Positions 1 to 29,060 of a DNA stretch of 64,000 nt are shown piece by piece. Within the stretch, counting starts at the first letter, position 1. Each line of letters begins with the position of its first letter. The position numbers were made by a program, and so were the translations under genes. This stretch comes from Eledone cirrhosa (taxonomy: Eukaryota), in assembly GCA_964016885.1 (NCBI GenBank), contig OZ024740.1:211234001-211298000 (forward strand). The letters run 5' to 3'. The notes beneath the pieces are model-generated. The model saw only the letters and a program-made list of their open reading frames with translations, had not been told where the DNA came from and did not search any database.

Positions 1-330
1 TTGTAAACTTCTATCATGGCTATCTTCTACTATCAACTTATGAGAGAATTTCATTGTAAACTTCTATCATGACTACCTTCTACTATCATTTTATGGGAGA
101 CTTTCATTGTAAACTTCTATCATGGCTATCTTCTACTATCAGCTTATGAGAGACTTTCATTGTAAACTTCTGTTATGGCTACCTTCTACTATCAACTTAT
201 GAGAGACTTTCATTGTAAACTTCTGTCATGACTACCTTCTACTATCATTTTATGGGAGACTTTCATTGTAAACTTCTATCATGGCTACCTTCTACTATCA
301 ACTTATGAGAGACTTTCATTGTAAACTTCT
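1..330 (-). repeat. Same 53-bp satellite in opposite orientation (~6 monomers visible, runs off the left edge)
   Basis: Reads TTGTAAACTTCTATCATGGCTACCTTCTACTATCAACTTATG..., the reverse complement of the main monomer, up to ...GTAAACTTCT at 330. Confidence 0.99.
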
Positions 331-634
331 AAGTTGATAGTAGAAGGTAGCCATGATAGAAGTTTACAATGAAAGTCTCCCATAAAATGATAGTGGAAGG
401 TAGTCATGACAGAAGTTTACAATGAAAGTCTCTCATAAGTTGATAGTAGAAGGTAGCCATAACAGAAGTTTACAATGAAAGTCTCTCATAAGCTGATAGT
501 AGAAGATAGCCATGATAGAAGTTTACAATGAAAGTCTCCCATAAAATGATAGTAGAAGGTAGTCATGATAGAAGTTTACAATGAAAGTCTCTCATAAGTT
601 GATAGTAGAAGGTAGCCATGATAGAAGTTTACAA
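1..634. other. Fold-back inverted duplication (palindrome) centred on a 24-nt spacer at 306-329
   Basis: 1-305 is the reverse complement of 330-634 with 3 mismatches (23/612, 48/587, 240/395). Rare monomer variants GTCATGAC, GCCATAAC and AGCTGATAGTAGAAGATAGCC are mirrored in the same order on both arms. Confidence 0.95.
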
Positions 635-1462
635 TGAAAGTCTCCCATAAAATGATAGTAGAAGGTAGCCATGACAGAAGTTTACAATGAAAGTCCCCCA
701 TAAGTTGATAGTAGAAGGTAGCCATGATAGAAGTTTACAATGAAAGTCCCCCATAAGTTGATAGTAGAAGGTAGCCATGATAGAAGTTTACAATGAAAGT
801 CTCCCATAAATTGATAGTGGAAGGTAGCCATGATAGAAGTTTACAATGAAAGTCTCCCATAAAATGATAGTAGAAGGTAGCCACGATAGAAGTTTACGAT
901 GAAAGTCTCCCATAAAATGATAGTAGAAGGTAGCCATGATAGAAGTTTACAATGAAAGTCTCCCATAAGTTGATAGTAGAAGGTATCCATGATAGAAGTT
1001 TACAATGAAAGTCTTCCATTAAATGATAGTAGAAGGTAGCCATGATAGAAGTTTACAATTAAAGACTCCCATAAAATGATAGTAGAAGGTAGCCATGATA
1101 GAAGTTTACAATGAAAGTCTTCCATTAAATGATAGTAGAAGGTAGCCATGATAGAAGTTTACAATGAATGTCTCTCATAAAATGATAGTAGAAGGTAGCC
1201 ATGATAGAAGTTTACAATGAATGTCTCCCATAAAATAATAGTAGAAGGTAGCCATGATAGAAGTTTACAATGAAAGTCTCCCGTAAGTTGATAGTAGAAG
1301 GTAGCCATGATAGAAGTTTACAATGAAAGTCTCCCATAAGTTATTAGTAGAAGGTAGTCATGATAGAAGTTTACAATGAAATTCTCCCATAAGTTGATAG
1401 TGGAAGGTAGCCTTGATAGAAGTTTACAATTAAAGACTCCCATAAAATGATAGTAGAAGGTA

Positions 1463-4400
1463 GCCATGATAGAAGTTTACAATGAAAGGCTCCCAAAAGT
1501 TGATAGTAGAAGGTAGCCATGATAGAAGTTTACAATGAAAGTCTCCCATAAGTTGATAGTAGAAGGTAGCCATGATAGAAGTTTACAATGAAAGTCTCCC
1601 ATAAGTTGATAGAGAAGGTACCCATGATAGTAGTTTACAATGAAAGTCTCCCATAAGTTGATGGTAGAATGTAGCCATGATAGAAGTTTACAATGAAAGT
1701 CTCCCATAAAATGATAGTAGAAGGTAGCCATGATAGAAGTTTACAATGAAAGTCCCCCATAAGTTGATAGTAGAAGGTATCCATGATAGAAGTTTACAAT
1801 GAAAGTCTTCCATTAAATGATAGTAGAAGGTATCCATGATAGAAGTTTACAATGAATGTCTCCCATAAAATAATAGTAGAAGGTAGCCATGATAGAAGTT
1901 TACAATGAAAGTCTCCCGTAAGTTGATAGTAGAAGGTAGCCATGATAGAAGTTTACAATGAAAGTCTCCCATAAGTTATTAGTAGAAGGTAGTCATGATA
2001 GAAGTTTACAATGAAAGTCTCCCATAAGTTGATAGTAGAAGGTAGTCATGATAGAAGTTTACAATGAAAGTCTCTCATACGTTGATAGTAGAAGGTAGCC
2101 ATGATAGAAGTTTACAATGAAAGTCTCCCATGAAATGATAGTAGAAGGTAGCCATGATAGAAGTTTACAATGAAAGTCTCCCATAAAATGATAGTAGAAG
2201 GTAGCCATGATAGAAGTTTACAATGAAAGTCTCCCATAAGTTGATAGTGGAAGGTAGCCATGATAGAAGTTTACAATGAAAGTCTCCCATAAGTTGATAG
2301 CAGAAGGTAGCCATGATACAAGTTTACAATGAATGTCTCCCATAAAATAATAGTAGAAGGAAGCCATGATAGAAGTTTAAAATGAAAGTCTCCCATAAAA
2401 TGATAGTATAAAGTAGCCATGATAGAAGTTTACAATGAAAGTCTCCCATAAGCTGATAGTAGAACATAGCCATGATAGAAGTTTACAATGAAAGTCTCCC
2501 ATAAGTTGATAGTAGAAGGTAGCCATGATAGAAGTTTACAATGAAAGTCTCTCATAAGTTGATAGTACATGGTAGCCATGATAGAAGTTTACAATGAAAG
2601 TCTCCCATGAAATGATAGTAGAAGGTAGCCATGATAGAAGTTTACAATGAAAGTCCCCCATAAGTTGATAGTAGAAGGTAGCCATGATAGAAGTTTACAA
2701 TGAAAGTCTCCCATAAAATGATAGTAGAAGGTAGCCATGATAGAAGTTTACAATGAAAGTCTCTCATAAGTTGATAGTAGATGGTAGCCATGATAGAGGT
2801 TTACAATGAAAGTCTCCCATAAAATGATAGTAGAAGGTAGCCATGATAGAAGTTTACAATGAAAGTCTCTCATAAGTTGATAGTAGATGGTAGTCATGAT
2901 AGAAGTTTAAAATGAAAGTCTCTCATAAGTTGATAGTAGATGGTAGCCCTGATAGAAGTTTACAATGAAAGTCTCTCATAAGTTGATAGTAGAAGGTAGC
3001 CATGATAGAAGTTTACAATGAAAGTCTCCCATGAAATGATAGTACAAGGTAGCCATGATAGAAGTTTACAATGAAAGTCCCCCATAAGTTGATAGTAGAA
3101 GGTAGCCATGATAGAGGTTTACAATGAAAGTCTCCCATAAATTGATAGTAGAAGGTAGCCATGATAGAAGTTTACAATGAAAGTCTCCCATTAAATGATA
3201 GTAGAAGGTAGCCATGATAGAAGTTTACGATGAAAGTCTCCCATAAAATGATAGTAGAAGGTAGCCATAATAGAAGTTTACAATGAAAGTCTCCCATAAA
3301 ATGATAGTAGAAGGTAGCCATGATAGAAGTTTACAATGAAAGTCTCCCATAAATTGATAGTAGAAGGTAGCCATGATAGAAGTTTACAATGAAAGTCTCC
3401 AATAAGATGATAGTAGAAGGTAGCCATGATAGAAGTTTACAATGAAAGACTCCCATAAGTTGATAGTAGAAAGCAGCCATAATAGAAGTTTACAATGAAT
3501 GTCTCCCATAAAATGATAGTAGAAGGTAGCCATGATAGAAGTTTACAATGAATGTCTCCCATAAGCTGATAGTAGAAGGTAGCCATGATAGAAGTTTACA
3601 ATGAAAGTCTCCCATAAGTTGATAGTAGAAGGTCGCCATGATAGAAGTTAACAATGAAAGGCTCCCAAAAGTTGATAGTAGAAGGTAGCCATGATAGAAG
3701 TTTACAATGAAAGTCTCCCATAAGTTGATAGTAGAAGGTAGCCATGATAGAAGTTTACAATGAAAGTCTCCCATAAGTTGATAGAGAAGGTACCCATGAT
3801 AGTAGTTTACAATGAAAGTCTCCCATAAGTTGATGGTAGAATGTAGCCATGATAGAAGTTTACAATGAAAGTCTCCCATAAAATGATAGTAGAAGGTAGC
3901 CATGATAGAAGTTTACAATGAAAGTCCCCCATAAGTTGATAGTAGAAGGTATCCATGATAGAAGTTTACAATGAAAGTCTTCCATTAAATGATAGTAGAA
4001 GGTATCCATGATAGAAGTTTACAATGAATGGCTCCCATAAAATAATAGTAGAAGGTAGGCATGATAGAAGTTTACAATGAAAGTCTCCCGTAAGTTGATA
4101 GTAGAAGGTAGCCATGATAGAAGTTTACAATGAAAGTCTCCCATAAGTTATTAGTAGAAGGTAGTCATCATAGAAGTTTACAATGAAAGTCTCCCATAAG
4201 TTGATAGTAGAAGGTAGTCATGATAGAAGTTTACAATGAAAGTCTCTCATACGTTGATAGTAGAAGGTAGCCATGATAGAAGTTTACAATGAAAGTCTCC
4301 CATGAAATGATAGTAGAAGGTAGCCATGATAGAAGTTTACAATGAAAGTCTCCCATAAAATGATAGTAGAAGGTAGCCATGATAGAAGTTTACAATGAAA

Positions 4401-6097
4401 GTCTCCCATAAGTTGATAGTGGAAGGTAGCCATGATAGAAGTTTACAATGAAAGTCTCCCATAAGTTGATAGCAGAAGGTAGCCATGATACAAGTTTACA
4501 ATGAATGTCTCCCATAAAATAATAGTAGAAGGAAGCCATGATAGAAGTTTAAAATGAAAGTCTCCCATAAAATGATAGTATAAAGTAGCCATGATAGAAG
4601 TTTACAATGAAAGTCTCCCATAAGCTGATAGTAGAACATAGCCATGATAGAAGTTTACAATGAAAGTCTCCCATAAGTTGATAGTAGAAGGTAGCCATGA
4701 TAGAAGTTTACAATGAAAGTCTCTCATAAGTTGATAGTACATGGTAGCCATGATAGAAGTTTACAATGAAAGTCTCCCATGAAATGATAGTAGAAGGTAG
4801 CCATGATAGAAGTTTACAATGAAAGTCCCCCATAAGTTGATAGTAGAAGGTAGCCATGATAGAAGTTTACAATGAAAGTCTCCCATAAAATGATAGTAGA
4901 AGGTAGCCATGATAGAAGTTTACAATGAAAGTCTCTCATAAGTTGATAGTAGATGGTAGCCATGATAGAGGTTTACAATGAAAGTCTCCCATAAAATGAT
5001 AGTAGAAGGTAGCCATGATAGAAGTTTACAATGAAAGTCTCTCATAAGTTGATAGTAGATGGTAGTCATGATAGAAGTTTAAAATGAAAGTCTCTCATAA
5101 GTTGATAGTAGATGGTAGCCCTGATAGAAGTTTACAATGAAAGTCTCTCATAAGTTGATAGTAGAAGGTAGCCATGATAGAAGTTTACAATGAAAGTCTC
5201 CCATGAAATGATAGTACAAGGTAGCCATGATAGAAGTTTACAATGAAAGTCCCCCATAAGTTGATAGTAGAAGGTAGCCATGATAGAGGTTTACAATGAA
5301 AGTCTCCCATAAATTGATAGTAGAAGGTAGCCATGATAGAAGTTTACAATGAAAGTCTCCCATTAAATGATAGTAGAAGGTAGCCATGATAGAAGTTTAC
5401 GATGAAAGTCTCCCATAAAATGATAGTAGAAGGTAGCCATAATAGAAGTTTACAATGAAAGTCTCCCATAAAATGATAGTAGAAGGTAGCCATGATAGAA
5501 GTTTACAATGAAAGTCTCCCATAAATTGATAGTAGAAGGTAGCCATGATAGAAGTTTACAATGAAAGTCTCCAATAAGATGATAGTAGAAGGTAGCCATG
5601 ATAGAAGTTTACAATGAAAGACTCCCATAAGTTGATAGTAGAAAGCAGCCATAATAGAAGTTTACAATGAATGTCTCCCATAAAATGATAGTAGAAGGTA
5701 GCCATGATAGAAGTTTACAATGAATGTCTCCCATAAGCTGATAGTAGAAGGTAGCCATGATAGAAGTTTACAATGAAAGTCTCCCATAAGTTGATAGTAG
5801 AAGGTCGCCATGATAGAAGTTTACAATGAAAGGCTCCCAAAAGTTGATAGTAGAAGGTAGCCATGATAGAAGTTTACAATGAAAGTCTCCCATAAGTTGA
5901 TAGTAGAAGGTAGCCATGATAGAAGTTTACAATGAAAGTCTCCCATAAGTTGATAGAGAAGGTACCCATGATAGTAGTTTACAATGAAAGTCTCCCATAA
6001 GTTGATGGTAGAATGTAGCCATGATAGAAGTTTACAATGAAAGTCTCCCATAAAATGATAGTAGAAGGTAGCCATGATAGAAGTTTACAATGAAAGT
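1463..6097 (+). repeat. Higher-order duplication, period 2,172 bp (41 monomers minus 1 bp), ~2.1 copies
   Basis: Markers AAGGCTCCCAAAAG and the 1-bp-deletion monomer GATAGAGAAGGTACCC recur at 2,172-bp spacing. The ORF track shows the same spacing (right ends 1731, 3903, 6075). 41x53-1=2172. Confidence 0.92.
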
Positions 6098-7679
6098 CTC
6101 CCATTAAATGATAGTAGAAGGTAGCCATGATAGAAGTTTACAATGAATGTGTCCCATAAAATGATAGTGGAAGGTAGCCATGATAGAAGTTTACAATGAA
6201 AGTCTCCCATAAGTTGATAGTAGAAAGCAGCCATGATAGAAGTTTACAATGAATGTCTCCCATAAAATGATAGTAGAAGGTAGCCATGATAGAAGTTTAC
6301 AATGAAAGTCTCCCATTAAATGATAGTAGAATGTAGCCATGATAGAAGTTTACAATGAAAGTCCCCCATAAGTTGATGGTAGAATGTAGCCATGATAGAA
6401 GTTTACAATGAAAGTCTCCCATAAATTGATAGTAGAAGGTAGCCATGATAGAAGTTTACAATGAAAGTCTCCCATTAAATGATAGTAGAAGGTAGCCATG
6501 ATAGAAGTTTACAATGAAAGACTCCCATAAAATGATAGTAGAAGGTAGCCATGATAGAAGTTTACAATGAAAGTCTCTCATAAGTTGATAGTAGATGGTA
6601 GCCATGAGAGAAGTTTACAATGAAAGTCTCTCATAAGTTGATAGTAGATGGTAGCCATGATAGAAGTTTACAATGAAAGTCTCCCATAAAATGAAAGTAG
6701 AAGGTAGCCATGATAGAAGATTACAATGAAAGTCTCTCATAAGTTGATAGTAGATGGTAGCCATGATAGAAGTTTACAATGAAAGTCTCTCATAAGTTGA
6801 TAGTAGAAGGTAGCCATGATAGAAGTTTACAATGAAAGTCTCTCATAAGTTGATAGTAGATGGTAGCCATGATAGATATTTACAATGAAATTCTCCCATA
6901 AAATGATAGTAGAAGGTAGCCATGATAGAAGTTTACAATGAAAGTCTCCCATGAAATGATAGTAGAAGGTAGCCATGATATAAGTTTACGATGAAAGTCC
7001 CCCATAAGTTGATAGTAGAAGGTAGCCATGATAGAGGTTTACAATGAAAGTCTCCCATAAATTGATAGTAGAAGGTAGCCATGATAGAAGTTTACAAGGA
7101 AAGTCTCCCATTAAATGATAGTAGAAGGTAGCCATGATAGAAGTTTACGATGAAAGTCTCCCATAAAATGATAGTAGAAGGTAGCCATAATAGAAGTTTA
7201 CAATGAAAATCTCCCATAAAATGATAGTAGAAGGTAGCCATGATAGAAGTTTACAATGAAAGTCTCCCATAAATTGATAGTAGAAGGTAGCCAAGACAGA
7301 AGTTTACAATGAAAGTCTCCCATAAGTTGATAGTAGAAAGCAGCCATGATAGAAGTTTACGATGAATGTCTCCCATAAAATGATAGTAGAAGGTAGCCAT
7401 GATAGAAGTTTACAATGAAAGTCTCCCATAAGTTGATAGTGGAAGGTAGCCATGATAGAAGTTTACGATGAAAGTCTCCCATAAGTTAATAGCAGAAGGT
7501 AGCCATGATACAAGTTTACGATGAATGTCTCCCATAAAATAATAGTAGAAGGTAGCCATGATAGAAGTTTAAAATGAAAGTCTCCCATAAGTTGATAGTA
7601 GAAAGCAGCCGTGATACAAGTTTACAATGAAAGTCTCCCATAAAATGATAGTAGAAGGTAGCCATGATAGAAGATTACA

Positions 7680-10228
7680 ATGAATGTCTCCCATAAAATG
7701 ATAGTAGAAGGGAGTGTTGATAGAAGTTTACAATGAAAGTCTCCCATAAGCTGATAGTAGAACGTAGCCATGATAGAAGTTTACAATGAAAGTCTCCCAT
7801 AAGTTGATAGTAGAAGGTAGCCATGATAGAAGTTTACAATTAAAGACTCCCATAAAATGATAGTAGAAGGTAGCCATGATAGAAGTTTACAATGAAAATC
7901 TCCCGTCAGTTGATAATAGAAGGTAGCCACGATAGAAGTTTACAATTAAAGACTCCAATAAAATGATAGTAGAATGTAGCCATGATAGAAGTTTACAATG
8001 AATGTCTCCCATAAAATGATAGTAGAAGGGAGTGTTGATGGAAGTTTACAATGAAAGTCTCCCATAAAATGATAGTAGAAGGTAGCCATCATAGAAGTTT
8101 ACAATGAAAGTCCCCCATAAGATGATAGTAGAAGGTAGCCATGAGAGAAGTTTACAATGAAAGTCTCCCATAAGCTGATAGTAGAACGTAGCCATGATAG
8201 AAGTTTACAATGAAAGTCTCCCATAAGTTGATAGTAGAAGGTAGCCATGATAGAAGTTTACAATTAAAGACTCCCATAAAATGATAGTAGAAGGTAGCCA
8301 TGATAGAACTTTACAATGAAAGTCTCTCATGAGTTGATAGTAAAAGGTAGCCGTGATAGAAGTTTACAATGAAAGTCTCCCATAAAATGATAGTAGAAGG
8401 TAGCCATGATAGAAGTTTACAATGAAAGTCCCCCATAAGTTGATGGTAGAAGGTAGCCATGATAGAAGTTTACAATGAAAGTCTCCCATAAATTGATAGT
8501 AGAAGGTAGCCATGATAGAAGTTTACAATGAAAGTCTCCCATAAAATGATAGTAGAAGGTAGCCATGATAGAAGTTTACAATGAAAGTCTCCCATAAATT
8601 GATAGTAGAAGGTAGCCATGATAGAAGTTTACAATGAAATTCTCCCATAAAATGATAGTAGAAGGTAGCCATGATAGAAGTTTACAATGAAAGTCTCCCA
8701 TAAGTTAATAGTAGAAGGTAGCCATGATAGAAGTTTAAAATGAAAGTCTCCCATAAGTTGATAGTAGAAAGCAGCCATGATAGAAGTTTACAATGAATGT
8801 CTCCCATAAAATAATAGTAGAAGGTAGCCATGATAGAAGTTTACAATGAATGTCTCCCATAAAATGATAGTAGAAGGTAGCCATAATAGAAGTTTACAAT
8901 GAAAGTCTCCCATAAAATGATAGTAGAAGGTAGCCATGATAGAAGTTTACAATGAATGTCTCCCATAAAATGATAGTAGAAGGGAGTGTTGATAGAAGTT
9001 TACAATGAAAGTCTCCCATAAGCTGATAGTAGAACGTAGCCATGATAGAAGTTTACAATGAAAGTCTCCCATAAGTTGATAGTAGAAGGTAGCCATGATA
9101 GAAGTTTACAATTAAAGACTCCCATAAAATGATAGTAGAAGGTAGCCATGATAGAAGTTTACGATGAAAATCTCCCGTCAGTTGATAATAGAAGGTAGCC
9201 ACGATAGAAGTTTACAATTAAAGACTCCAATAAAATGATAGTAGAATGTAGCCATGATAGAAGTTTACAATGAATGTCTCCCATAAAATGATAGTAGAAG
9301 GGAGTGTTGATGGAAGTTTACAATGAAAGTCTCCCATAAAATGATAGTAGAAGGTAGCCATCATAGAAGTTTACAATGAAAGTCCCCCATAAGATGATAG
9401 TAGAAGGTAGCCATGAGAGAAGTTTACAATGAAAGTCTCCCATAAGCTGATAGTAGAACGTAGCCATGATAGAAGTTTACAATGAAAGTCTCCCATAAGT
9501 TGATAGTAGAAGGTAGCCATGATAGAAGTTTACAATTAAAGACTCCCATAAAATGATAGTAGAAGGTAGCCATGATAGAACTTTACAATGAAAGTCTCTC
9601 ATGAGTTGATAGTAAAAGGTAGCCGTGATAGAAGTTTACAATGAAAGTCTCCCATAAAATGATAGTAGAAGGTAGCCATGATAGAAGTTTACAATGAAAG
9701 TCCCCCATAAGTTGATGGTAGAAGGTAGCCATGATAGAAGTTTACAATGAAAGTCTCCCATAAATTGATAGTAGAAGGTAGCCATGATAGAAGTTTACAA
9801 TGAAAGTCTCCCATAAAATGATAGTAGAAGGTAGCCATGATAGAAGTTTACAATGAAAGTCTCCCATAAATTGATAGTAGAAGGTAGCCATGATAGAAGT
9901 TTACAATGAAATTCTCCCATAAAATGATAGTAGAAGGTAGCCATGATAGAAGTTTACAATGAAAGTCTCCCATAAGTTAATAGTAGAAGGTAGCCATGAT
10001 AGAAGTTTAAAATGAAAGTCTCCCATAAGTTGATAGTAGAAAGCAGCCATGATAGAAGTTTACAATGAATGTCTCCCATAAAATAATAGTAGAAGGTAGC
10101 CATGATAGAAGTTTACAATGAATGTCTCCCATAAAATGATAGTAGAAGGTAGCCATAATAGAAGTTTACAATGAAAGTCTCCCATAAAATGATAGTAGAA
10201 GGTAGCCATGATAGAAGTTTACAATGAA
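7680..10228 (+). repeat. Higher-order duplication, period 1,272 bp (24 monomers), 2 copies
   Basis: GGGAGTGTTG at 7710/8982 and 8028/9300; CCATAATAG at 8881/10153; all offsets 1272=24x53. Confidence 0.92.
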
Positions 10229-13200
10229 AGACTCCCATAAATTGATAGTAGAAGGTAGCCATGATAGAAGTTTACAATGAAAGTCTCCCATAAGTTGATA
10301 GTAGAACGTAGCCATGATAGAAGTTTACAATGAAAGTCTCCCATAAAATGATAGTAGAAGGTAGCCAAGATAGAAGTTTACAATGAAAGACTCCCGTAAG
10401 TTGATAGTAGAAAGCAGCCATAATAGAAGTTTACAATGAATGTCTCCCATAAAATGATAGTAGAAGGTAGCCATGATAGAAGTTTACAATGAATGTCTCC
10501 CATAAGCTGATAGTAGAAGGTAGCCATGATAGAAGTTTACAATGAAAGTCTCCCATAAGTTGATAGTAGAAGGTCGCCATGATAGAAGTTTACAATGAAA
10601 GGCTCCCAAAAGTTGATAGTAGAAGGTAGCCATGATAGAAGTTTACAATGAAAGTCTCCCATAAGTTGATAGTAGAAGGTAGCCATGGTAGAAGTTTACA
10701 ATGAAAGTCTCCCATAAGTTGATGGTAGAATGTAGCCATGATAGAAGTTTACAATGAATGTCTCCCATAAAATGATAGAAGGTAGCCATGATAGAAGTTT
10801 ACAATGAAAGTCTCCCATAAGTTGATAGTAGAAGGTAGCCATGATAGAAGTTTACAATGAATGTGTCCCATAAAATGATAGTAGAAGGTAGCCATGATAG
10901 AAGTTTACAATGAAAGTCTCCCATAAGTTGATAGTAGAAAGCAGCCATGATAGAAGTTTACAATGAAAGTCTCCCATAAGTTGATAGTAGAAAGCAGCCA
11001 TGATAGAAGTTGACAATGAATGTCTCCCATAAGCTGATAGTAGAAGGAAGCCATGATAGAAGTTTACAATGAAAGTCTCCCATAAATTGATAGTAGAAGG
11101 TAGCCATGATAGAAGTTTACAATGAAAGTCTCCCATTAAATGATAGTAGAAGGTAGCCATGATAGAAGTTTACAATGAAAGACTCCCATAAAATGAGAGT
11201 AGAAGGTAGCCATGATAGAAGTTTACAATCAAAGTCTCTCATAAGATGATAGTAGATGGTAGCCATGAGAGAAGTTTACAATGAAAGTCTCTCATAAGTT
11301 GATAGTAGATGGTAGCCATGATAGAAGTTTACAATGAAAGTCTCCCATAAAATGATAGTAGAAGGTAGCCATGATAGAAGTTTACAATGAAAGTCTCTCA
11401 TAAGTTGATAGTAGAAGGTAGCCATGATAGAAGTTTACAATGAAAGTCTCTCATAAGTTGATAGTAGATGGTAGCCATGATAGATATTTACAATGAAATT
11501 CTCCCATAGGTTGATATTAGAAGGTAGCCATGATAGAAGTTTACAATGAAAGTCTCCCATGAAATGATAGTAGAAGGTAGCCATGATAGAAGTTTACAAT
11601 GAAAGTCTCCCATAAAATGATAGTAGAAGGTAGCCATGATAGAAGTTTACAATGAAAGTCCCCCATAAGATGATAGTAGAAGGTAGCCATGAGAGAAGTT
11701 TACAATGAAAGTCTCCCATAAGCTGATAGTAGAACGTAGCCATGATAGAAGTTTACAATGAAAGTCTCCCATAAGTTGATAGTAGAAGGTAGCCATGATA
11801 GAAGTTTACAATTAAAGACTCCCATAAAATGATAGTAGAAGGTAGCCATGATAGAACTTTACAATGAAAGTCTCTCATGAGTTGATAGTAAAAGGTAGCC
11901 GTGATAGAAGTTTACAATGAATGTCTCCCATAAAATGATAGTAGAAGGTAGCCATGATAGAAGTTTACAATGAAAGTCTCCCATAAAATGATAGTAGAAG
12001 GTAGCCATGATAGAAGTTTACAATGAATGTCTCCCATAAAATGATAGTAGAAGGTAGCCATGATAGAAGTTTACAATGAAAGTCTCCCATAAGTTGATAG
12101 TAGAAGGTAGCCATGATAGAAGTTTACAATGAATGTGTCCCATAAAATGATAGTAGAAGGTAGCCATGATAGAAGTTTACAATGAAAGTCTCCCATAAGT
12201 TGATAGTAGAAAGCAGCCATGATAGAAGTTTACAATGAAAGTCTCCCATAAGTTGATAGTAGAAAGCAGCCATGATAGAAGTTTACAATGAATGTCTCCC
12301 ATAAGCTGATAGTAGAAGGAAGCCATGATAGAAGTTTACAATGAAAGTCTCCCATAAATTGATAGTAGAAGGTAGCCATGATAGAAGTTTACAATGAAAG
12401 TCTCCCATTAAATGATAGTAGAAGGTAGCCATGATAGAAGTTTACAATGAAAGTCTCTCATAAGTTGATAGTAGATGGTAGCCATGATAGATATTTACAA
12501 TGAAATTCTCCCATAGGTTGATATTAGAAGGTAGCCATGATAGAAGTTTACAATGAAAGTCTCCCATGAAATGATAGTAGAAGGTAGCCATGATAGAAGT
12601 TTACAATGAAAGTCTCCCATTAAATGATAGTAGAAGGTAGCCATGATAGAAGTTTACGATGAAAGTCTCCCATAAAATGATAGTAGAAGGTAGCCATAAT
12701 AGAAGTTTACAATGAAAATCTCCCATAAAATGATAGTAGAAGGTAGCCATGATAGAAGTTTACAATGAAAGTCTCCCATAAATTGATAGTAGAAGGTAGC
12801 CAAGACAGAAGTTTACAATGAAAGTCTCCCATAAGTTGATAGTAGAAAGCAGCCATGATAGAAGTTTACGATGAATGTCTCCCATAAAATGATAGTAGAA
12901 GGTAGCCATGATAGAAGTTTACAATGAAAGTCTCCCATATGTTGATAGTGGAAGGTAGCCATGATAGAAGTTTACGATGAAAGTCTCCCATAAGTTAATA
13001 GCAGAAGGTAGCCATGATACAAGTTTACGATGAATGTCTTCCATAAAATAATAGTAGAAGGTAGCCATGATAGAAGTTTAAAATGAAAGTCTCCCATAAG
13101 TTGATAGTAGAAAGCAGCCGTGATACAAGTTTACAATGAAAGTCTCCCATAAAATGATAGTAGAAGGTAGCCATGATAGAAGTTTACAATGAATGTCTCC

Positions 13201-15934
13201 CATAAAATGATAGTAGAAGGGAGTGTTGATAGAAGTTTACAATGAAAGTCTCCCATAAAATGATAGTAGAAGGTAGGAATGATAGAAGTTTACAATGAAA
13301 GTCCCCCATAAGATGATAGTAGAACGTAGCCATGATAGAAGTTTACAATGAAAGTCTCCCATAAAATGATAGTAGAAGGTAGGAATGATAGAAGTTTACA
13401 ATTAAAGACTCCCATAAAATGATAGTAGAAGGTAGCCATGATAGAACTTTACAATGAAAGTCTCTCATGAGTTGATAGTAAAAGGTAGCCATGATAGAAG
13501 TTTACAATTAAAGACTCCAATAGAATGATAGTAGAAGGTAGCCATGATAGAACTTTACAATGAAAGTCTCTCATGAGTTGATAGTAAAAGGTAGCCATGA
13601 TAGAAGTTTACAATGAAAGTCTCCCATAAAATGATAGTAGAAGGTAGCCATGATAGAAGTTTACAATGAAAGTCCCCCATAAGTTGATGGTAGAAGGTAG
13701 CCATGATAGAAGTTTACAATGAAAGTCTCCCATGAAATGATAGTAGAAGGTAGCCATGATAGAAGTTTACAATGAAAGTCTCCCATAAGTTGATAGTAGA
13801 AGGTAGCCATGATAGAAGTTTACAATGAAAGTCTCCCATAAAATGATAGTAGAAGGTAGCCATGATAGAAGTTTACAATGAAAGTCTCCCATAAATTGAT
13901 AGTAGAAGGTAGCCATGATAGAAGTTTACAATGAAAGTCTCCCATAAAATGATAGTAGAAGGTAGCCATGATAGAAGTTTACAATGAAAGTCTCCCATAA
14001 GTTGATAGTAGAAAGCAGCCATGATAGAAGTTTACAATGAATGTCTCCCATAAAATAATAGTAGAAGGTAGCCATGATAGAAGTTTACAATGAATGTCTC
14101 CCATAAAATGATAGTAGAAGGTAGCCATGATAGAAGTTTACAATGAAAGTCTCCCATAAGCTGATAGTAGAACGTAGCCATGATAGAAGTTTACAATGAA
14201 AGTCTCCCATAAGTTGATAGTAGAAGGGAGCCATGATACAAGTTTACAATGAATGTCTCCCATAAAATGATAGTAGAAGGTAGCCATGATAGAAGTTTAC
14301 AATGAAAGTCTCCCATTAAATGATAGTAGAAGGTAGCCATGATAGAAGTTTACAATGAAAGTCTCCCATAAGCTGATAGTAGAACGTAGCCATGATAGAA
14401 GTTTACAATGAAAGTCTCCCATAAGTTGATAGTAGAAAGCAGCCATGATAGAAGTTTACAATGAATGTCTCCCATAAAATAATAGTAGAAGGTAGCCATG
14501 ATAGAAGTTTACAATGAATGTCTCCCATAAAATGATAGTAGAAGGTAGCCATGATAGAAGTTTACAATGAAAGTCTCCCATAAGTTGATAGTAGAAGGGA
14601 GCCATGATACAAGTTTACAATGAATGTCTCCCATAAAATGATAGTAGAAGGTAGCCATGATAGAAGTTTACAATGAAAGTCTCCCATTAAATGATAGTAG
14701 AAGGTAGCCATGATAGAAGTTTACAATGAAAGTCTCCCATAAGCTGATAGTAGAACGTAGCCATGATAGAAGTTTACAATGAAAGTCTCCTAAAGTTGAT
14801 AGTAGAAGGTAGCCATGATAGAAATTTACAATTAAAGACTCCCATAAAATGATAGTAGAAGGTAGCCATGATAGAAGTTTACAATGAAAGTCTCCCGTCA
14901 GTTGATAGTAGAAGGTAGCCATGATAGAAGTTTACAATTAAAAACTCCAATAAAATGATAGTAGAAGGTAGCCATGATAGAAGTTTACAATGAATTTCTC
15001 CCATAAAATGATAGTAGAAGGTAGCCATGAGAGAAGTTTACAATGAAAGTCTCCCATAAAATGATAGTAGAAGGTAGCCATGATAGAAGTTTACAATGAA
15101 AGTCCCCCATAAGATGATAGTAGAAGGTAGCCATGAGAGAAGTTTACAATGAAAGTCTCCCATAAGCTTATAGTAGAACGTAGCCATGATAGAAGTTTAC
15201 AATGAATGTCTCCCATAAGTTGATAGTAGAAGGTAGCCATGATAGAAGTTTACAGTTAAAGACTCCCATAAAATGATAGTAGAAGGTAGCCATGATAGAA
15301 GTTTACAATGAAAGACCTAAAAAAGTTGATGGTAGAAGGTAGCCATGATAGAAGTTTACAATGAAAGTCTCCCATGAAACGATAGTAGAAGGTAGCCATG
15401 ATAGAAGTTTACAATGAAAGTCTCCCATAAGTTGAGAGTAGAAGGTAGCCATGATAGAAGTTTACAATGAAAGTCTCCCATAAAATGATAGTAGAAGGTA
15501 GCCATGATAGAAGTTTACAATGAAAGTCTCCCATAAATTGATAGTAGAAGGTAGCCATGATAGCAGTTTTCAATGAAAGTCTCCCATAAAATGATAGTAG
15601 AAGGTAGCCCTGGTAGAAGTTTACAATGAAAGCCTCCTGTAAGTTGATAGTAGAAGGTAGCCATGATAGAAGTTTACAATGAAAGTCTCCCATAAGTTAA
15701 TAGTAGAAGGTAGCCATGATAGGAGTTTACAATGAAAGTCTCCCATAAGTTGATAGTAGAAGGTAGCCATGATAGAAGTTTACAATGAAAGTCTCTCATA
15801 AGTTGATAGTAGATGGTAGTCATGATACAAGTTTACAATGAAAGTCTCTCATGAGTTGATAGTAAAAGGTAGCCATGATAGAAGTTTACAATGAAAGTCT
15901 CCCATAAAATGATAGTAGAAGGTAGCCATGATAG

Positions 15935-18900
15935 AAGTTTACAATGAAAGTCTCCCATAAAATGATAGTAGAAGGTAGCCATGATAGAAGTTTACAATGA
16001 AAGTCCCCCATAAGTTGATGGTAGAAGGTAGTCATGATAGAAGTTTACAATGAAAGTCTCCCATGAAATGATAGTAGAAGGTAGCCATGATAGAAGTTTA
16101 CAATGAAAGTCTCCCATAAGTTGATAGTAGAAGGTAGCCATGATAGAAGTTTACAATGAAAGTCTCCCATAAAATGATAGTAGAAGGTAGCCATGATAGA
16201 AGTTTACAATGAAAGTCTCCCATAAATTGATAGTAGAAGCTAGCCATGATAGAAGTTTACAATGAAAGTCTCCCATAAAATGATAGTAGAAGGTAGCCAT
16301 GATAGAAGTTTACAATGAAAGTCTCCCATAAGTTAATAGTAGAAGGTAGCCATGATAGAAGTTTAAAATGAAAGTCTCCCATAAGTTGATAGTAGAAAGC
16401 AGCCATGATAGAAGTTTACAATGAATGTCTCCCATAAAATAATAGTAGAAGGTAGCCATGATAGAAGTTTACAATGAAAGTCTCCCATAAGTTGATAGTA
16501 GAAGGTAGCCATGATAGAAATTTACAATGAATGTCTCCCATAAAATGATAGTAGAAGGTAGCCATGATAGAAGTTTACAATGAAAGTCTCCCATAAGTTG
16601 ATAGTAGAAGGTAGCCATGATAGAAGTTTACAATGAATGTCTCCCATAAAATGATAGTAGAAGGTAGCCATGATAGAAGTTTACAATGAAAGTCTCCCAT
16701 AAAATGATAGTAGAAGGTAGCCATGATAGAAGTTTACAATGAAAGTCTCCCATAAGTTGATAGTAGAAGGTAGCCATGATAGAAGTTTACAATGAATGTC
16801 TCCCATGAAATGATAGTAGAAGGTAGCCATGATAGAAGTTTACAATGAATGTCTCCCATAAAATGATAGTAGAAGGTAGCCATGATAGAAGTTTACAATG
16901 AAAGTCTCCCATAAGTTGATAGTAGAAGGTAGCCATGATACAAGTTTACAATGAATGTCTCCCATAAAATGATAGTAGAAGGTAGCCATGATAGAAGTTT
17001 ACAATGAAAGTCTCCCATAAGTTGATAGTAGAAAGCAGCCATGATAGAAGTTTACAATGAATGTCTCCCATAAAATGATAGTAGAAGGTAGCCATGATAT
17101 AAGTTTACAATGAAAGTCTCCCATTAAATGATAGTAGAAGGTAGCCATGATAGAAGTTTACAATGAAAGTCTCCCATAAGCTGATAGTAGAACGTAGCCA
17201 TGATAGAAGTTTACAATGAAAGTCTCCTAAAGTTGATAGTAGAAGGTAGCCATGATAGAAATTTACAATTAAAGACTCCCATAAAATGATAGTAGAAGGT
17301 AGCCATGAGAGAAGTTTACAATGAAAGTCTCCCATAAAATGATAGTAGAAGGTAGCCATGATAGAAGTTTACAATGAAAGTCCCCCATAAGATGATAGTA
17401 GAAGGTAGCCATGAGAAAAGTTTACAATGAAAGTCTCCCATAAGCTGATAGTAGAACGTAGCCATGATAGAAGTTTACGTTGAATGTCTCCCATAAGTTG
17501 ATAGTAGAACGTAGCCATGATAGAAGTTTACAATTAAAGACTCCCATAAAATGATAGTAGAAGGTAGCCATGATAGAACTTTACAATGAAAGTCTCTCAT
17601 GAGTTTATAGTAAAAGGTAGCCATGATAGAAGTTTACAATGAAAGTCTGCCATAAAATGATAGTAGAAGGTAGCCATGATAGAAGTTTACAATGAAAGAC
17701 CTAAGAAAGTTGATGGTAGAAGGTAGCCATGATAGAAGTTTACAATGAAAGTCTCCCATGAAACGATAGTAGAAGGTAGCCATGATAGAGGTTTACAATG
17801 AAAGTCTCCCATAAGTTGAGAGTAGAAGGTAGCCATGATAGAACTTTACAATGAAAGTCTCTCATGAGTTGATAGTAAAAGGTAGCCATGACAGAAGTTT
17901 ACAATCAAAGTCTCCCATAAAATGATAGTAGAAGGTAGCCATGATAGAAGTTTACAATGAAAGTCCCCCATAAGTTGATGGTAGAAGGTAGCCATGATAG
18001 AAGTTTACAATGAAAGGCTCCCATGAAATGATAGTAGAAGGTAGCCATGATAGAAGTTTACAATGAAAGTCTCCCATAAGTTGATAGTAGAAGGTAGCCA
18101 TGATAGAAGTTTACAATGAAAGTCTCCCATAAAATGATAGTAGAATGTAGCCATGATAGAAGTTTACAATGAAAGTCTCCCATAAATTGATAGTAGAAGG
18201 TAGCCATGATAGAAGTTTACAATGAAAGTCTCCCATAAGATGATAGTAGAAGGTAGCCATGATAGAAGTTTACAATGAAAGTCTCCCATAAGTTAATAGT
18301 AGAAGGTAGCCATGATAGAAGTTTAAAATGAAAGTCTCCCATAAGTTGATAGTAGAAAGCAGCCATGATAGAAGTTTACAATGAATGTCTCCCATAAAAT
18401 AATAGTAGAAGGTAGCCATGATAGAAGTTTACAATGAAAGTCTCCCATAAGTTGATAGTAGAAGGTAGCCATGATAGAAGTTTACAATGAATGTCTCCCA
18501 TAAAATGATAGTAGAAGGTAGCCATGATAGAAGTTTACAATGAAAGTCTCCCATAAGTTGATAGTAGAAGGTAGCCATGATAGAAGTTTACAATGAATGT
18601 CTCCCATAAAATGATAGTAGAAGGTAGCCATGATAGAAGTTTACAATGAAAGTCTCCCATTAAATGATAGTAGAAGGTAGCCATGATAGAAGTTTACAAT
18701 GAAAGTCTCCCATAAGCTGATAGTAGAACGTAGCCATGATAGAAGTTTACAATGAAAGTCTCCTAAAGTTGATAGTAGAAGGTAGCCATGATAGAAATTT
18801 ACAATTAAAGACTCCCATAAAATGATAGTAGAAGGTAGCCATGATAGAAGTTTACAATGAAAGTGTCCCGTCAGTTGATAGTAGAAGGTAGCCATGATAG

Positions 18901-21900
18901 AAGTTTACAATTAAAGACTCCAATAAAATGATAGTAGAAGGTAGCCATGATAGAAGTTTACAATGAATTTCTCCCATAAAATGATAGTAGAAGGTAGCCA
19001 TGAGAGAAGTTTACAATGAAAGTCTCCCATAAAATGTTAGTAGAAGGTAGCCATGATATAAGTTTACAATGAAAGTCTCCCATAAAATGATAGTAGAAGG
19101 TAGCCATGATAGAAGTTTACAATGAAAGTCCCCCATAAGTTGATGGTAGAAGGTAGTCATGATAGAAGTTTACAATGAAAGTCTCCCATGAAATGATAGT
19201 AGAAGGTAGCCATGATAGAAGTTTACAATGAAAGTCTCCCATAAGTTGATAGTAGAAGGTAGCCATGATAGAAGTTTACAATGAAAGTCTCCCATAAAAT
19301 GATAGTAGAAGGTAGCCATGATAGAAGTTTACAATGAAAGTCTCCCATAAATTGATAGTAGAAGCTAGCCATGATAGAAGTTTACAATGAAAGTCTCCCA
19401 TAAAATGATAGTAGAAGGTAGCCATGATAGAAGTTTACAATGAAAGTCTCCCATAAGTTAATAGTAGAAGGTAGCCATGATAGAAGTTTAAAATGAAAGT
19501 CTCCCATAAGTTGATAGTAGAAAGCAGCCATGATAGAAGTTTACAATGAATGTCTCCCATAAAATAATAGTAGAAGGTAGCCATGATAGAAGTTTACAAT
19601 GAAAGTCTCCCATAAGTTGATAGTAGAAGGTAGCCATGATAGAAATTTACAATGAATGTCTCCCATAAAATGATAGTAGAAGGTAGCCATGATAGAAGTT
19701 TACAATGAAAGTCTCCCATAAGTTGATAGTAGAAGGTAGCCATGATAGAAGTTTACAATGAATGTCTCCCATAAAATGATAGTAGAAGGTAGCCATGATA
19801 GAAGTTTACAATGAAAGTCTCCCATAAAATGATAGTAGAAGGTAGCCATAATAGAAGTTTACAATGAAAGTCTCCCATAAGTTGATAGTAGAAGGTAGCC
19901 ATGATAGAAGTTTACAATGAATGTCTCCCATGAAATGATAGTAGAAGGTAGCCATGATAGAAGTTTACAATGAATGTCTCCCATAAAATGATAGTAGAAG
20001 GTAGCCATGATAGAAGTTTACAATGAAAGTCTCCCATAAGTTGATAGTAGAAGGTAGCCATGATACAGGTTTACAATGAATGTCTCCCATAAAATGATAG
20101 TAGAAGGTAGCCATGATAGAAGTTTACAATGAAAGTCTCCCATAAGTTGATAGTAGAAAGCAGCCATGATAGAAGTTTACAATGAATGTCTCCCATAAAA
20201 TGATAGTAGAAGGTAGCCATGATATAAGTTTACAATGAAAGTCTCCCATTAAATGATAGTAGAAGGTAGCAATGATAGAAGTTTACAATGAAAGTCTCCC
20301 ATAAGCTGATAGTAGAACGTAGCCATGATAGAAGTTTACAATGAAAGTCTCCTAAAGTTGATAGTAGAAGGTAGCCATGATAGAAATTTACAATTAAAGA
20401 CTCCCATAAAATGATAGTAGAAGGTAGCCATGAGAGAAGTTTACAATGAAAGTCTCCCATAAAATGATAGTAGAAGGTAGCCATGATAGAAGTTTACAAT
20501 GAAAGTCCCCCATAAGATGATAGTAGAAGGTAGCCATGAGAAAAGTTTACAATGAAAGTCTCCCATAAGCTGATAGTAGAACGTAGCCATGATAGAAGTT
20601 TACGTTGAATGTCTCCCATAAGTTGATAGTAGAACGTAGCCATGATAGAAGTTTACAATTAAAGACTCCCATAAAATGATAGTAGAAGGTAGCCATGATA
20701 GAACTTTACAATGAAAGTCTCTCATGAGTTTATAGTAAAAGGTAGCCATGATAGAAGTTTACAATGAAAGTCTGCCATAAAATGATAGTAGAAGGTAGCC
20801 ATGATAGAAGTTTACAATGAAAGACCTAAGAAAGTTGATGGTAGAAGGTAGCCATGATAGAAGTTTACAATGAAAGTCTCCCATGAAACGATAGTAGAAG
20901 GTAGCCATGATAGAGGTTTACAATGAAAGTCTCCCATAAGTTGAGAGTAGAAGGTAGCCATGATAGAACTTTACAATGAAAGTCTCTCATGAGTTGATAG
21001 TAAAAGGTAGCCATGACAGAAGTTTACAATCAAAGTCTCCCATAAAATGATAGTAGAAGGTAGCCATGATAGAAGTTTACAATGAAAGTCCCCCATAAGT
21101 TGATGGTAGAAGGTAGCCATGATAGAAGTTTACAATGAAAGGCTCCCATGAAATGATAGTAGAAGGTAGCCATGATAGAAGTTTACAATGAAAGTCTCCC
21201 ATAAGTTGATAGTAGAAGGTAGCCATGATAGAAGTTTACAATGAAAGTCTCCCATAAAATGATAGTAGAATGTAGCCATGATAGAAGTTTACAATGAAAG
21301 TCTCCCATAAATTGATAGTAGAAGGTAGCCATGATAGAAGTTTACAATGAAAGTCTCCCATAAGATGATAGTAGAAGGTAGCCATGATAGAAGTTTACAA
21401 TGAAAGTCTCCCATAAGTTAATAGTAGAAGGTAGCCATGATAGAAGTTTAAAATGAAAGTCTCCCATAAGTTGATAGTAGAAAGCAGCCATGATAGAAGT
21501 TTACAATGAATGTCTCCCATAAAATAATAGTAGAAGGTAGCCATGATAGAAGTTTACAATGAAAGTCTCCCATAAGTTGATAGTAGAAGGTAGCCATGAT
21601 AGAAGTTTACAATGAATGTCTCCCATAAAATGATAGTAGAAGGTAGCCATGATAGAAGTTTACAATGAAAGTCTCCCATAAGTTGATAGTAGAAGGTAGC
21701 CATGATAGAAGTTTACAATGAATGTCTCCCATAAAATGATAGTAGAAGGTAGCCATGATAGAAGTTTACAATGAAAGTCTCCCATTAAATGATAGTAGAA
21801 GGTAGCCATGATAGAAGTTTACAATGAAAGTCTCCCATAAGCTGATAGTAGAACGTAGCCATGATAGAAGTTTACAATGAAAGTCTCCTAAAGTTGATAG

Positions 21901-22180
21901 TAGAAGGTAGCCATGATAGAAATTTACAATTAAAGACTCCCATAAAATGATAGTAGAAGGTAGCCATGATAGAAGTTTACAATGAAAGTCTCCCGTCAGT
22001 TGATAGTAGAAGGTAGCCATGATAGAAGTTTACAATTAAAGACTCCAATAAAATGATAGTAGAAGGTAGCCATGATAGAAGTTTACAATGAATTTCTCCC
22101 ATAAAATGATAGTAGAAGGTAGCCATGAGAGAAGTTTACAATGAAAGTCTCCCATAAAATGTTAGTAGAAGGTAGCCATG
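15935..22180 (+). repeat. Higher-order duplication, period 3,125 bp (59 monomers minus 2 bp), 2 copies
   Basis: ORF pairs 17105/20230 and 18641/21766 are offset by 3125. Markers AGAAGCTAGCC, TTTACGTTGAATG, GACCTAAGAAAG and AAAATGTTAG each recur at that offset. Two TCTCCTAAAG 1-bp-deletion monomers per unit explain 59x53-2. Confidence 0.92.
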
Positions 22181-22399
22181 ATAGAAGTTTACAATGAAAG
22201 TCCCCCATAAGATGATAGTAGAAGGTAGCCATGAGAGAAGTTTACAATGAAAGTCTCCCATAAGCTGATAGTAGAACGTAGCCATGATAGAAGTTTACGA
22301 TGAATGTCTCCCATAAGTTGATAGTAGAAGGTAGCCATGATAGAAGTTTACAATTAAAGACTCCCATAAAATGATAGTAGAAGGTAGCCATGATAGAAC

Positions 22400-25300
22400 T
22401 TTACAATGAAAGTCTCTCATGAGTTGATAGTAAAAGGTAGCCATGATAGAAGTTTACAATGAAAGTCTCCCATAAAATGATAGTAGAAGGTAGCCATGAT
22501 AGAAGTTTACAATGAAAGTCCTAAAAAAGTTGATGGTAGAAGGTAGCCATGATAGAAGTTTACAATGAAAGTCTCCCATGAAACGATAGTAGAAGGTAGC
22601 CATGATAGAAGTTTACAATGAAAGTCTCCCATAAGTTGAGAGTAGAAGGTAGCCATGATAGAAGTTTACAATGAAAGTCTCCCATAAAATGATAGTAGAA
22701 GGTAGCCATGATAGAAGTTTACAATGAAAGTCTCCCATAAATTGATAGTAGAAGGTAGCCATGATAGAAGTTTACAATGAAAGCCTCCTGTAAGTTGATA
22801 GTAGAAGGTAGCCATGATAGAAGTTTACAATGAAAGTCTCCCATAAGTTAATAGTAGAAGGTAGCCATGATAGGAGTTTACAATGAAAGTCTCCCATAAG
22901 TTGATAGTAGAAGGTAGCCATGATAGAAGTTTACAATGAAAGTCTCTCATAAGTTGATAGTAGATGGTAGTCATGATACAAGTTTACAATGAAAGTGTCC
23001 CAAAAAATGATAGTAGAAGGTAGCCATGATAGAAGTTTACAAAGAAAGTCTCCCATAAGTTGATAGTAGAAGGTAGTCATGATAGAAGTTTACAATGAAA
23101 ATCTCCCATGAATTGATAGTAGAAGGTAGCCATGATAGAAGTTTACAATGAAAGTCTCCCATAAAATGATAGTAGAAGGTAGCCATGAAAGAAGTTTACA
23201 ATGAAAGTCTCCCATAAGTTGATAGTAGAAGGTAGCCATGATAGAAGTTTACAATTAAAGTCTCTCATGAAATAATAGTAGAAGGTAGCCATGATAGAAG
23301 TTTACAATGAAAGTCTCTCATAAGTTGATAGTAGATGGTAGCCATGAGAGAAGTTTACAATGAAAGTCTCTCATAAGTTGATAGTAGATGGTAGCCATGA
23401 TAGAAGTTTACAATGAAAGTCTCCCATAAAATGATAGTAGAAGGTAGCCATGATAGAAGTTTACAATGAAAGTCTCTCATAAGTTGATAGTAGATGGTAG
23501 CCATGATAGAAGTTTACAATGAAAGTCTCTCATAAGTTGATAGTAGATGGTAGCCATGATAGAAGTTTACAATGAAAGTCTCTCATAAGTTGATAGTAGA
23601 TGGTAGCCATGATAGATATTTACAATGAAATTCTCCCATAAGTTGATAGTAGAAGGTAGCCATGATAGAAGTTTACAATGAAAGTCTCCCATGAAATGAT
23701 AGTAGAAGGTAGCCATGATAGAAGTTTACGATGAAAGTCGCCCATAAGTTGATAGTAGAAGGTAGCCATGATAGAGGTTTACAATGAAAGTCTCCCATAA
23801 ATTGATAGTAGAAGGTAGCCATGATAGAAGTTTACAATGAAAGTCTCCCATTAAATGATAGTAGAAGGTAGCCATGATAGAAGTTTACGATGAAAGTCTC
23901 CCATAAAATGATAGTAGAAGGTAGCCATAATAGAAGTTTACAATGAAAGTCTCCCATAAAATGATAGTAGAAGGTAGCCATGATAGAAGTTTACAATGAA
24001 AGTCTCTCATGAGTTGATACTAAAAGGTAGCCATGATAGAAGTTTACAATGAAAGTCTCCCATAAAATGATAGTAGAAGGTAGCCATGATAGAAGTTTAC
24101 AATGAAAGTCCTAAAAAAGTTGATGGTAGAAGGTAGCCATGATAGAAGTTTACAATGAAAGTCTCCCATGAAACGATAGTAGAAGGTAGCCATGATAGAA
24201 GTTTACAATGAAAGTCTCCCATAAGTTGAGAGTAGAAGGTAGCCATGATAGAAGTTTACAATGAAAGTCTCCCATAAAATGATAGTAGAAGGTAGCCATG
24301 ATAGAAGTTTACAATGAAAGTCTCCCATAAATTGATAGTAGAAGGTAGCCATGATAGAAGTTTACAATGAAAGCCTCCTGTAAGTTGATAGTAGAAGGTA
24401 GCCATGATAGAAGTTTACAATGAAAGTCTCCCATAAGTTAATAGTAGAAGGTAGCCATGATAGGAGTTTACAATGAAAGTCTCCCATAAGTTGATAGTAG
24501 AAGGTAGCCATGATAGAAGTTTACAATGAAAGTCTCTCATAAGTTGATAGTAGATGGTAGTCATGATACAAGTTTACAATGAAAGTGTCCCAAAAAATGA
24601 TAGTAGAAGGTAGCCATGATAGAAGTTTACAAAGAAAGTCTCCCATAAGTTGATAGTAGAAGGTAGTCATGATAGAAGTTTACAATGAAAATCTCCCATG
24701 AATTGATAGTAGAAGGTAGCCATGATAGAAGTTTACAATGAAAGTCTCCCATAAAATGATAGTAGAAGGTAGCCATGAAAGAAGTTTACAATGAAAGTCT
24801 CCCATAAGTTGATAGTAGAAGGTAGCCATGATAGAAGTTTACAATTAAAGTCTCTCATGAAATAATAGTAGAAGGTAGCCATGATAGAAGTTTACAATGA
24901 AAGTCTCTCATAAGTTGATAGTAGATGGTAGCCATGAGAGAAGTTTACAATGAAAGTCTCTCATAAGTTGATAGTAGATGGTAGCCATGATAGAAGTTTA
25001 CAATGAAAGTCTCCCATAAAATGATAGTAGAAGGTAGCCATGATAGAAGTTTACAATGAAAGTCTCTCATAAGTTGATAGTAGATGGTAGCCATGATAGA
25101 AGTTTACAATGAAAGTCTCTCATAAGTTGATAGTAGATGGTAGCCATGATAGAAGTTTACAATGAAAGTCTCTCATAAGTTGATAGTAGATGGTAGCCAT
25201 GATAGATATTTACAATGAAATTCTCCCATAAGTTGATAGTAGAAGGTAGCCATGATAGAAGTTTACAATGAAAGTCTCCCATGAAATGATAGTAGAAGGT

Positions 25301-28300: not shown

Positions 28301-29060
28301 TGTAAGTTGATAGTAGAAGGTAGCCATGATAGAAGTTTACAATGAAAGTCTCCCATAAGTTAATAGTAGAAGGTAGCCATGATAGGAGTTTACAATGAAA
28401 GTCTCCCATAAGTTGATAGTAGAAGGTAGCCATGATAGAAGTTTACAATGAAAGTCTCTCATAAGTTGATAGTAGATGGTAGTCATGATACAAGTTTACA
28501 ATGAAAGTGTCCCAAAAAATGATAGTAGAAGGTAGCCATGAAAGAAGTTTACAATGAAAGCCTCCCATAAGTTGATAGTAGAAGGTAGCCATGATAGAAG
28601 TTTACAATTAAAGTCTCTCATGAAATAATAGTAGAAGGTAGCCATGATAGAAGTTTACAATGAAAGTCTCTCATAAGTTGATAGTAGATGGTAGCCATGA
28701 GAGAAGTTTACAATGAAAGTCTCTCATAAGTTGATAGTAGATGGTAGCCATGATAGAAGTTTACAATGAAAGTCTCCCATAAAATGATAGTAGAAGGTAG
28801 CCATGATAGAAGTTTACAATGAAAGTCTCTCATAAGTTGATAGTAGATGGTAGCCATGATAGAAGTTTACAATGAAAGTCTCTCATAAGTTGATAGTAGA
28901 TGGTAGCCATGATAGATATTTACAATGAAATTCTCCCATAAGTTGATAGTAGAAGGTAGCCATGATAGAAGTTTACAATGAAAGTCTCCCATAAAATGAT
29001 AGTAGAAGGTAGCCATGATAGAAGTTTACAATGAAAGTCGCCCATAAGTTGATAGTAGAA
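22400..29060 (+). repeat. Four copies of a 30-monomer (1,590 bp) unit with a ~14-monomer interruption and a shortened fourth copy
   Basis: CTAAAAAAGTTGATG at 22521, 24111, 26443, 28033 (spacings 1590, 2332, 1590 = 30, 44, 30 monomers). GCCTCCTGTAAG, GATAGGAG and GTGTCCCAAAAAATG follow in each copy. Confidence 0.9.

Follow-up and report, generated by a model that had tools for sequence, protein, structure and literature searches.

A mirrored 505-bp inversion at the edge of a 53-bp satellite array is most likely an ordinary scar of local DNA copying

Results

The window, i.e., the whole 64,000-nucleotide stretch of Eledone cirrhosa DNA analysed here, starts at G000:C1:211,234,001 of the 3.0-Gb assembly and consists of a single 53-bp satellite, with 6.2 copies on the minus strand (1-331) and approximately 1,202 copies on the plus strand (330-64,000). 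We also examined flanks of 90 kb upstream and 200 kb downstream of the window. The whole array, located at approximately G000:C1:211,233,325-211,401,310, is 168 kb long and comprises about 3,169-3,170 monomers with zero N. The minus-strand monomers belong to an inverted island of 505 bp (about 9.5 monomers), to the left of which lie approximately 500 bp of plus-strand monomers, followed by unique DNA. Beyond those 500 bp, the satellite was not found in the remaining 90 kb upstream. No second inverted tract was found in the 168-kb array, leaving the island as its sole inversion. An exact monomer 24-mer matched the genome 1,610 times in the forward and 6 times in the reverse orientation, every match being located within the array. 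With these 1,616 exact matches, the 53-bp satellite is apparently restricted to one 168-kb locus in the 3-Gb genome. The coordinates of the features are collected in Table 1.

Table 1. Features of the inverted island and the adjoining satellite tract (window positions unless a genomic coordinate is given).
Feature	Position	Strand	Remark
Main 53-bp satellite tract	330..64000	+	Part of the 168-kb array
Window part of the 505-bp inverted island	1..331	-	174 bp more lie upstream of the window
Left mirror arm	1..305	-	Reaches 29 bp beyond the window start (334 bp altogether), then breaks down
Inverted spacer, 24 nt (loop)	306..329	-	Inverted tail of the monomer that the left junction interrupts
Right junction, shared TA	330..331	.	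Monomer phase 1-2 on the plus strand, phase 28-29 on the minus strand
Right mirror arm, monomers m20 to head of m26	330..663	+	Presumed native sequence and template of the island
Arm difference 23/612, variant 18A	23..23	.	Probable junction of a 106-bp (two-monomer) duplication
Left junction, reciprocal TA	G000:C1:211,233,827-828		Outside the window, 174 bp before position 1

The array contains 594 distinct monomers, as well as higher-order copies at lags of, e.g., 30, 41, and 81 monomers. In its right quarter (window-equivalent positions 126,000-167,000; L017-L021), the differences per monomer from the common type rise from approximately 2.8 to 3.4-4.0. The left edge is formed by a decayed first monomer with an internal deletion (L002 4323-4375), a 25-mer of which is single-copy genome-wide. 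Variant 34G, carried by 3 of the 3,170 monomers, occurs on the first full monomer (L002 4376-4428) and on the last one (at approximately G000:C1:211,401,264). The two array edges, sharing this rare variant, may thus preserve an ancestral monomer. As for the flanks, an imperfect CA-rich microsatellite of 450 bp (L002 3600-4050) is located about 270 bp left of the array, and another CA run begins approximately 100 bp beyond the right end. The left flank also contains a short dispersed repeat (L002 4232-4283), where many unrelated contigs and reads match with loose ends. A run of 200 N lies at approximately G000:C1:211,419,940-211,420,140, about 18.6 kb past the right end of the array.

The inverted island (G000:C1:211,233,827-211,234,331) is closed, carries a TA at each end, and lies approximately 500 bp from the array edge. 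At the left junction, the plus strand ends at a TA of phase 28-29 and the minus strand begins at a TA of phase 1-2; the right junction is the converse. Un-inverting the island in silico restored a continuous 53-bp phase from monomer m2 to m43, the first phase shift thereafter occurring at window position 1602. The island can therefore be flipped back without gain or loss at either junction, as in a clean reciprocal inversion. Each junction pattern occurs once in the genome, which, together with the lack of a further inverted tract in the array, led us to reject a recurrent TA hot spot.

The microhomology amounts to 2 bp (TA) at both junctions. There are six TA sites per monomer, and 168 of the 2,809 phase pairs offer at least 2 bp. 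Among 200,000 simulated clean inversions in this array, 16.5% showed an inverted microhomology of at least 2 bp (P = 0.165); the TA is at chance level. The tail that forms the 24-nt spacer is also found, identical, at the opposite end of the island, and the left junction has the same 24-nt loop geometry, yet it shows 20 mismatches over 305 bp and no variant-level mirror. Single-stranded DNA of 181 nt was predicted to fold at -84.2 kcal/mol at the right junction and -70.8 kcal/mol at the left one, compared with -2.6 kcal/mol for the un-inverted sequence. Equal loop geometry and strong folding at both junctions indicate that the short loop stems from the phase of the inversion and not from fold-back priming; any inversion that preserves the phase and has its ends at these two TA sites is expected to give a 24-nt loop. 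Because the left junction folds comparably without any mirror, we gave hairpin energy no weight. The preliminary description had taken the short spacer and the microhomology as a signature of fold-back, a reading not supported by a loop that is itself inverted sequence and a TA at chance level.

When each position i is paired with 635-i, only three mismatches are found across positions 1-305 (23/612, 48/587, and 240/395). The TA at 304-305 pairs with the TA at 330-331, leaving the 24 nt at 306-329 unpaired in minus orientation, exactly as had been described. The reverse complement of 1-305 gives three mismatches at position 330 and at least 16 at the 1,125 others among the 1,126 in-phase placements in the window. 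Over the 2,777 in-phase placements of the whole array, the next best after the mirror has 16 mismatches, so that no other monomer run among the 2,776 remaining placements matches the left arm equally well. The mirror is thus monomer-specific and real as assembled, which bears out the claim that the two sides mirror the same individual monomers and not only the same family. The variants underlying the three arm differences are also present elsewhere in the array, on 63, 20, and 39 of the 3,169 monomers. Four monomers are unique in the array, m12, m15, and m17 of the island and m21 on the right.

The comparison with the upstream sequence gave an arm length of 334 bp, and the last 145 bp of the island contain nine mismatches. 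The palindrome, which had been suggested as possibly extending far upstream, therefore continues for merely 29 bp past the window start inside an island of 505 bp. The arms differ at 3 of 318 positions, whereas a perfect copy exists elsewhere in the array for 1,865 of the 3,163 six-monomer blocks. The event is thus likely older than much of the recent amplification of the array, in agreement with the earlier suggestion of some age.

For the monomer-level reading, we coded the monomers against the commonest base per column, using letter labels of our own. The un-inverted edge then reads B C 0 D E' F / B C 0 D+ E F C' x C'' 0 y / 0 D+ E F C 0 D'. Monomers m3-m8 and m9-m14 differ by three mismatches in 318 bp, and this duplicate at a lag of six monomers runs straight across the left breakpoint. 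Since it is intact there, no sequence was lost at the left breakpoint, and the far end of the island fits its un-inverted place. The 6-monomer tandem duplication at the array edge (L002 4429-4828 and the island) predates the inverted copy, judging from a shared 22T variant.

A second identity, at a lag of nine monomers, sets in at the diagnostic base closest to the left breakpoint on its left side. Its boundary is marked by a mismatch at m10 phase 22, 6 bp from the breakpoint at phase 28, the next mismatches being 64 bp away. Because the identity starts next to the left breakpoint, duplication and inversion have a common boundary. In the rest of the array, none of the 115,745 in-phase windows at lag 9 has three or fewer mismatches per 305 bp. 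For lags of 1-11 monomers, such windows were found only at lag 6 (12 windows) and lag 10 (40 windows). At the monomer level, the nearest such partner lies at lag 9 for 9 of the 3,163 blocks, two of which belong to the island. These array-wide figures understate the local odds of a duplicate, as the edge has a lag-6 duplication of its own. An independent inversion would rarely land on such a duplicate.

Gapped pairwise alignment of the island opened no gap under the chosen scoring (12 mismatches ungapped), and we therefore searched for in-phase jumps. When island monomers m11-m19 are built from the ten monomers to the right, 12, 6, 3, and 2 mismatches are left with 0, 1, 2, and 3 jumps, respectively; from the left tract, the corresponding numbers are 31, 12, 7, and 6. 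The control blocks (n = 446) had a minimum of 12 and a median of 40 mismatches without jumps. With two jumps, their median was 25, and 4 of the 446 blocks reached four or fewer mismatches, so that about 1% of them fit as well as the island does under a model that was devised post hoc from the monomer codes. The exhaustive search returned a single two-jump path with three mismatches. Its first jump, at m16 phase 6-18, spans 106 bp and explains the 23/612 difference, which would be best taken as the junction of a 106-bp (two-monomer) duplication in the island and not as a point mutation. The second jump, at m19 phase 23-28, joins the head of D' to the tail of C and coincides with the phase of the left breakpoint. 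Alternatively, a single point change in a D or C monomer could have produced m19.

The order of the locus is accordingly left tract, C-head, rc(C-tail + Y* + C-tail), Y, and the rest of the array, where Y stands for the 6.5 monomers that follow the switch on its right side and Y* for Y with one extra 106-bp dimer and three substitutions. The ancestral order would have been left tract, C-head, C-tail, Y. Monomer m26 of the right arm carries the rare variant 28C (14 of 3,170 monomers), which is absent from the paired island monomers, and the right arm thus looks native.

We found seven public runs, of which five were compared with the locus (three contig sets of one sample and two RAD runs). Of the sampled words, 0.30-0.32 were present in the three contig sets, from which the assembly itself may have been derived. 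Their contigs match the unique flank exactly; the depth is zero across the right junction, and a junction-spanning piece is absent among those listed. Equally, no depth is seen at the edge of the array itself (L002 4305-4353) or over monomers of two to three copies (L002 5110-5219), which indicates that low-copy paths were dropped and that missing junctions are not informative. One of the RAD runs contained few satellite reads and the other none at 99% likeness.

Discussion

The mirrored 505-bp piece most likely goes back to a local error in DNA copying, as an ordinary scar, and not to a broken chromosome end. We consider it probable that template switching during replication or repair both inverted 24 nt at their original site and inserted a reverse copy of the seven monomers that follow. 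In such a scheme, the nascent strand would first depart at the TA of phase 28-29 and use the TA located 24 nt ahead to prime on the opposite strand, producing a micro-inversion. After copying the 26-nt tail, it would re-anneal in phase to the like tail seven monomers further on and copy back, ending at the same stop point as before. It would finally return to the original strand at the second TA. The second and third steps could also have taken place later, by in-phase repair from an un-inverted sister or homologue, and the extra dimer and the substitutions may have arisen during the same event or afterwards. The re-annealing step predicts a jump at the phase of the left breakpoint, which is where the second jump lies (m19 phase 23-28). 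A plain two-switch event leaves the phase reciprocity unexplained, and the additional in-phase step is therefore required. The scheme would account for the phase reciprocity, the identical tails at both ends of the island, the chimeric m19, and the mirror beginning at the loop. We infer each of its steps from one haplotype, with a reconstructed ancestral allele. Relative to this ancestor, the 24-nt flip and the inverted copy of the following monomers would make up the net change, and nothing would have been lost. The island is probably a neutral scar, and nothing points to a function.

A more general form of this process, which we put forward only tentatively, might be described as a stuttering micro-inversion. 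The 24-nt flip would give a reverse-copying strand homology to all neighbouring monomers. Re-priming in phase could then enlarge the inverted island by whole monomers, and the product would be a short-spacer palindrome with reciprocal junctions that arose without a broken end.

Two separate events offer a possible but less likely origin. A clean cut-and-flip between TA sites, sealed by end joining, could have been combined, in either order, with an in-phase unequal exchange or tandem duplication. The phase reciprocity then follows without any assumption, and successive tandem duplications are a natural reading of the un-inverted array, whose edge already bears a lag-6 duplication. If the island looped out during exchange with an un-inverted homologue, the exchange would presumably begin at the junction. 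However, the boundary of the duplication must otherwise fall by chance within 6-64 bp of the left breakpoint, the switch in m19 at phase 23-28 must be a second coincidence, and duplicates at lags of up to 11 monomers are rare in this array.

It is improbable that a simple inversion came first and that a hairpin or cruciform at the right junction later allowed one arm to overwrite the other, generating the mirror by quasi-palindrome correction. Such a correction would suit the identity, which peaks beside the loop and stops after 334 bp, and the strong predicted folding of the right junction relative to the un-inverted sequence. Against it, the left junction folds nearly as well and has no mirror, and the rare 28C at m26 lets the right arm appear native.

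A chimeric fold-back read or an assembly artefact is a very unlikely source of the island, even though none of the public contigs listed crosses either junction. These contigs are missing the edge of the array as well, and their silence carries no weight. Fold-backs do occur in long reads, at approximately 0.55-0.6% of ONT genomic reads, and are virtually absent from the HiFi data tested; their typical form is one turn mapping to the same place (PMC12870357). The locus instead has two reciprocal junctions and non-identical arms. Moreover, the three variants that distinguish the arms recur elsewhere in the array, the island holds a 106-bp insertion, four monomers here occur once only, and the array is gapless.

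The fold-back of a breakage-fusion-bridge cycle leaves a long inverted duplication, loss of sequence beyond the break, no reciprocal junction, and a short spacer with microhomology. The preliminary description proposed such an origin from a broken end, which the assembly contradicts and which we regard as highly improbable. The short spacer, the mirrored adjacent monomers, and the TA at the right junction are indeed present, but at least 2 bp of microhomology also arises in 16.5% of simulated clean inversions, and the spacer itself is inverted. A long palindrome was rejected because the mirror of 334 bp lies in an island of 505 bp and unique DNA begins approximately 500 bp further left, with no satellite in the 90 kb upstream past those first 500 bp. 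Neither is ancestral sequence missing: a second, phase-reciprocal junction 505 bp away restores the plus orientation, and the lag-6 duplicate crosses it intact.

Among described rearrangements, the locus corresponds to the outcome of a four-point template switch of type 1-3-4-2, in which an inverted repeat is separated by an inverted spacer (Loytynoja and Goldman 2017, PMC5453318), and template switching is a likely cause. Both features are present here. That study deals with single switch-and-return events in unmasked complex DNA (PMC5453318). In our case, the copied piece is approximately 500 bp long and lies inside a satellite; it requires two additional in-phase slips and lengthened the array by complete monomers. 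The insert is not a single contiguous reverse-complement copy, as 12 mismatches without jumps fall to six with one and three with two, and extra slips or later changes are thus needed.

Micro-inversions that are precise, 17-33 nt long, and bordered by perfect or near-perfect inverted repeats have also been documented (PMC8755829). The core flip at the satellite edge is similarly small, with 24 nt (28 nt including both TAs), and lossless. Unlike those micro-inversions, which lack an added copy, it is flanked by only TA/TA and accompanied by a gain of approximately 477 bp (PMC8755829).

Small inverted triplications have a DUP/IN/DUP structure with two spacers and reverse-complement junction homology with a median of 6 bp (PMC13334657). 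They resemble our locus, as do ODIRA and DUP-TRP/INV-DUP, in having a central inverted fragment of a few hundred base pairs and a spacer near 30 bp (PMC13334657). The rare run D-E-F is likewise present three times here, with the middle copy inverted. However, one junction alone forms a variant-level mirror, the left copy being an older, more diverged tandem duplicate that spans the breakpoint, and the junction homology is 2 bp instead of the median of 6 bp (PMC13334657). Inverted triplications and ODIRA would mirror the flank at both junctions, and a link to a replication origin or to the ends of Okazaki fragments would also be expected of them. We rejected an inverted triplication, since the left junction shows 11-26 mismatches in all eight registers with a loop below 200 bp, in contrast to three at the right junction.

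By itself, one small and probably neutral rearrangement is of little weight. It is, however, a cleanly readable case, in which monomer variants allow both junctions and the template to be traced. Any phase-keeping inversion yields short loops at both ends, and a lone short-spacer mirrored junction in a satellite is therefore not evidence of breakage-fusion-bridge. If in-phase growth held across many arrays, it would explain how satellite strand switches start and lengthen. A stuttering micro-inversion, if true, would be a way, specific to satellites, for tiny flips to become larger strand switches, legible in chimeric monomers at the breakpoint phase.

In a narrow literature search, which supports no claim of absence, we did not find a junction of this kind described at the level of monomers. 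Switches of strand within satellite arrays are common in human HSat3 and alpha satellite, with approximately 129 per haplotype reported on human chromosome 9 (PMC13684623; 10.64898/2026.07.22.740206). The Eledone locus shares with them the local switch of orientation within one family. In contrast to the human arrays as described there, it contains a single very small island, resolved to the monomer, and its 53-bp array occupies one locus. At the edge of this otherwise homogenised array, the island also stands out as a unique marker.
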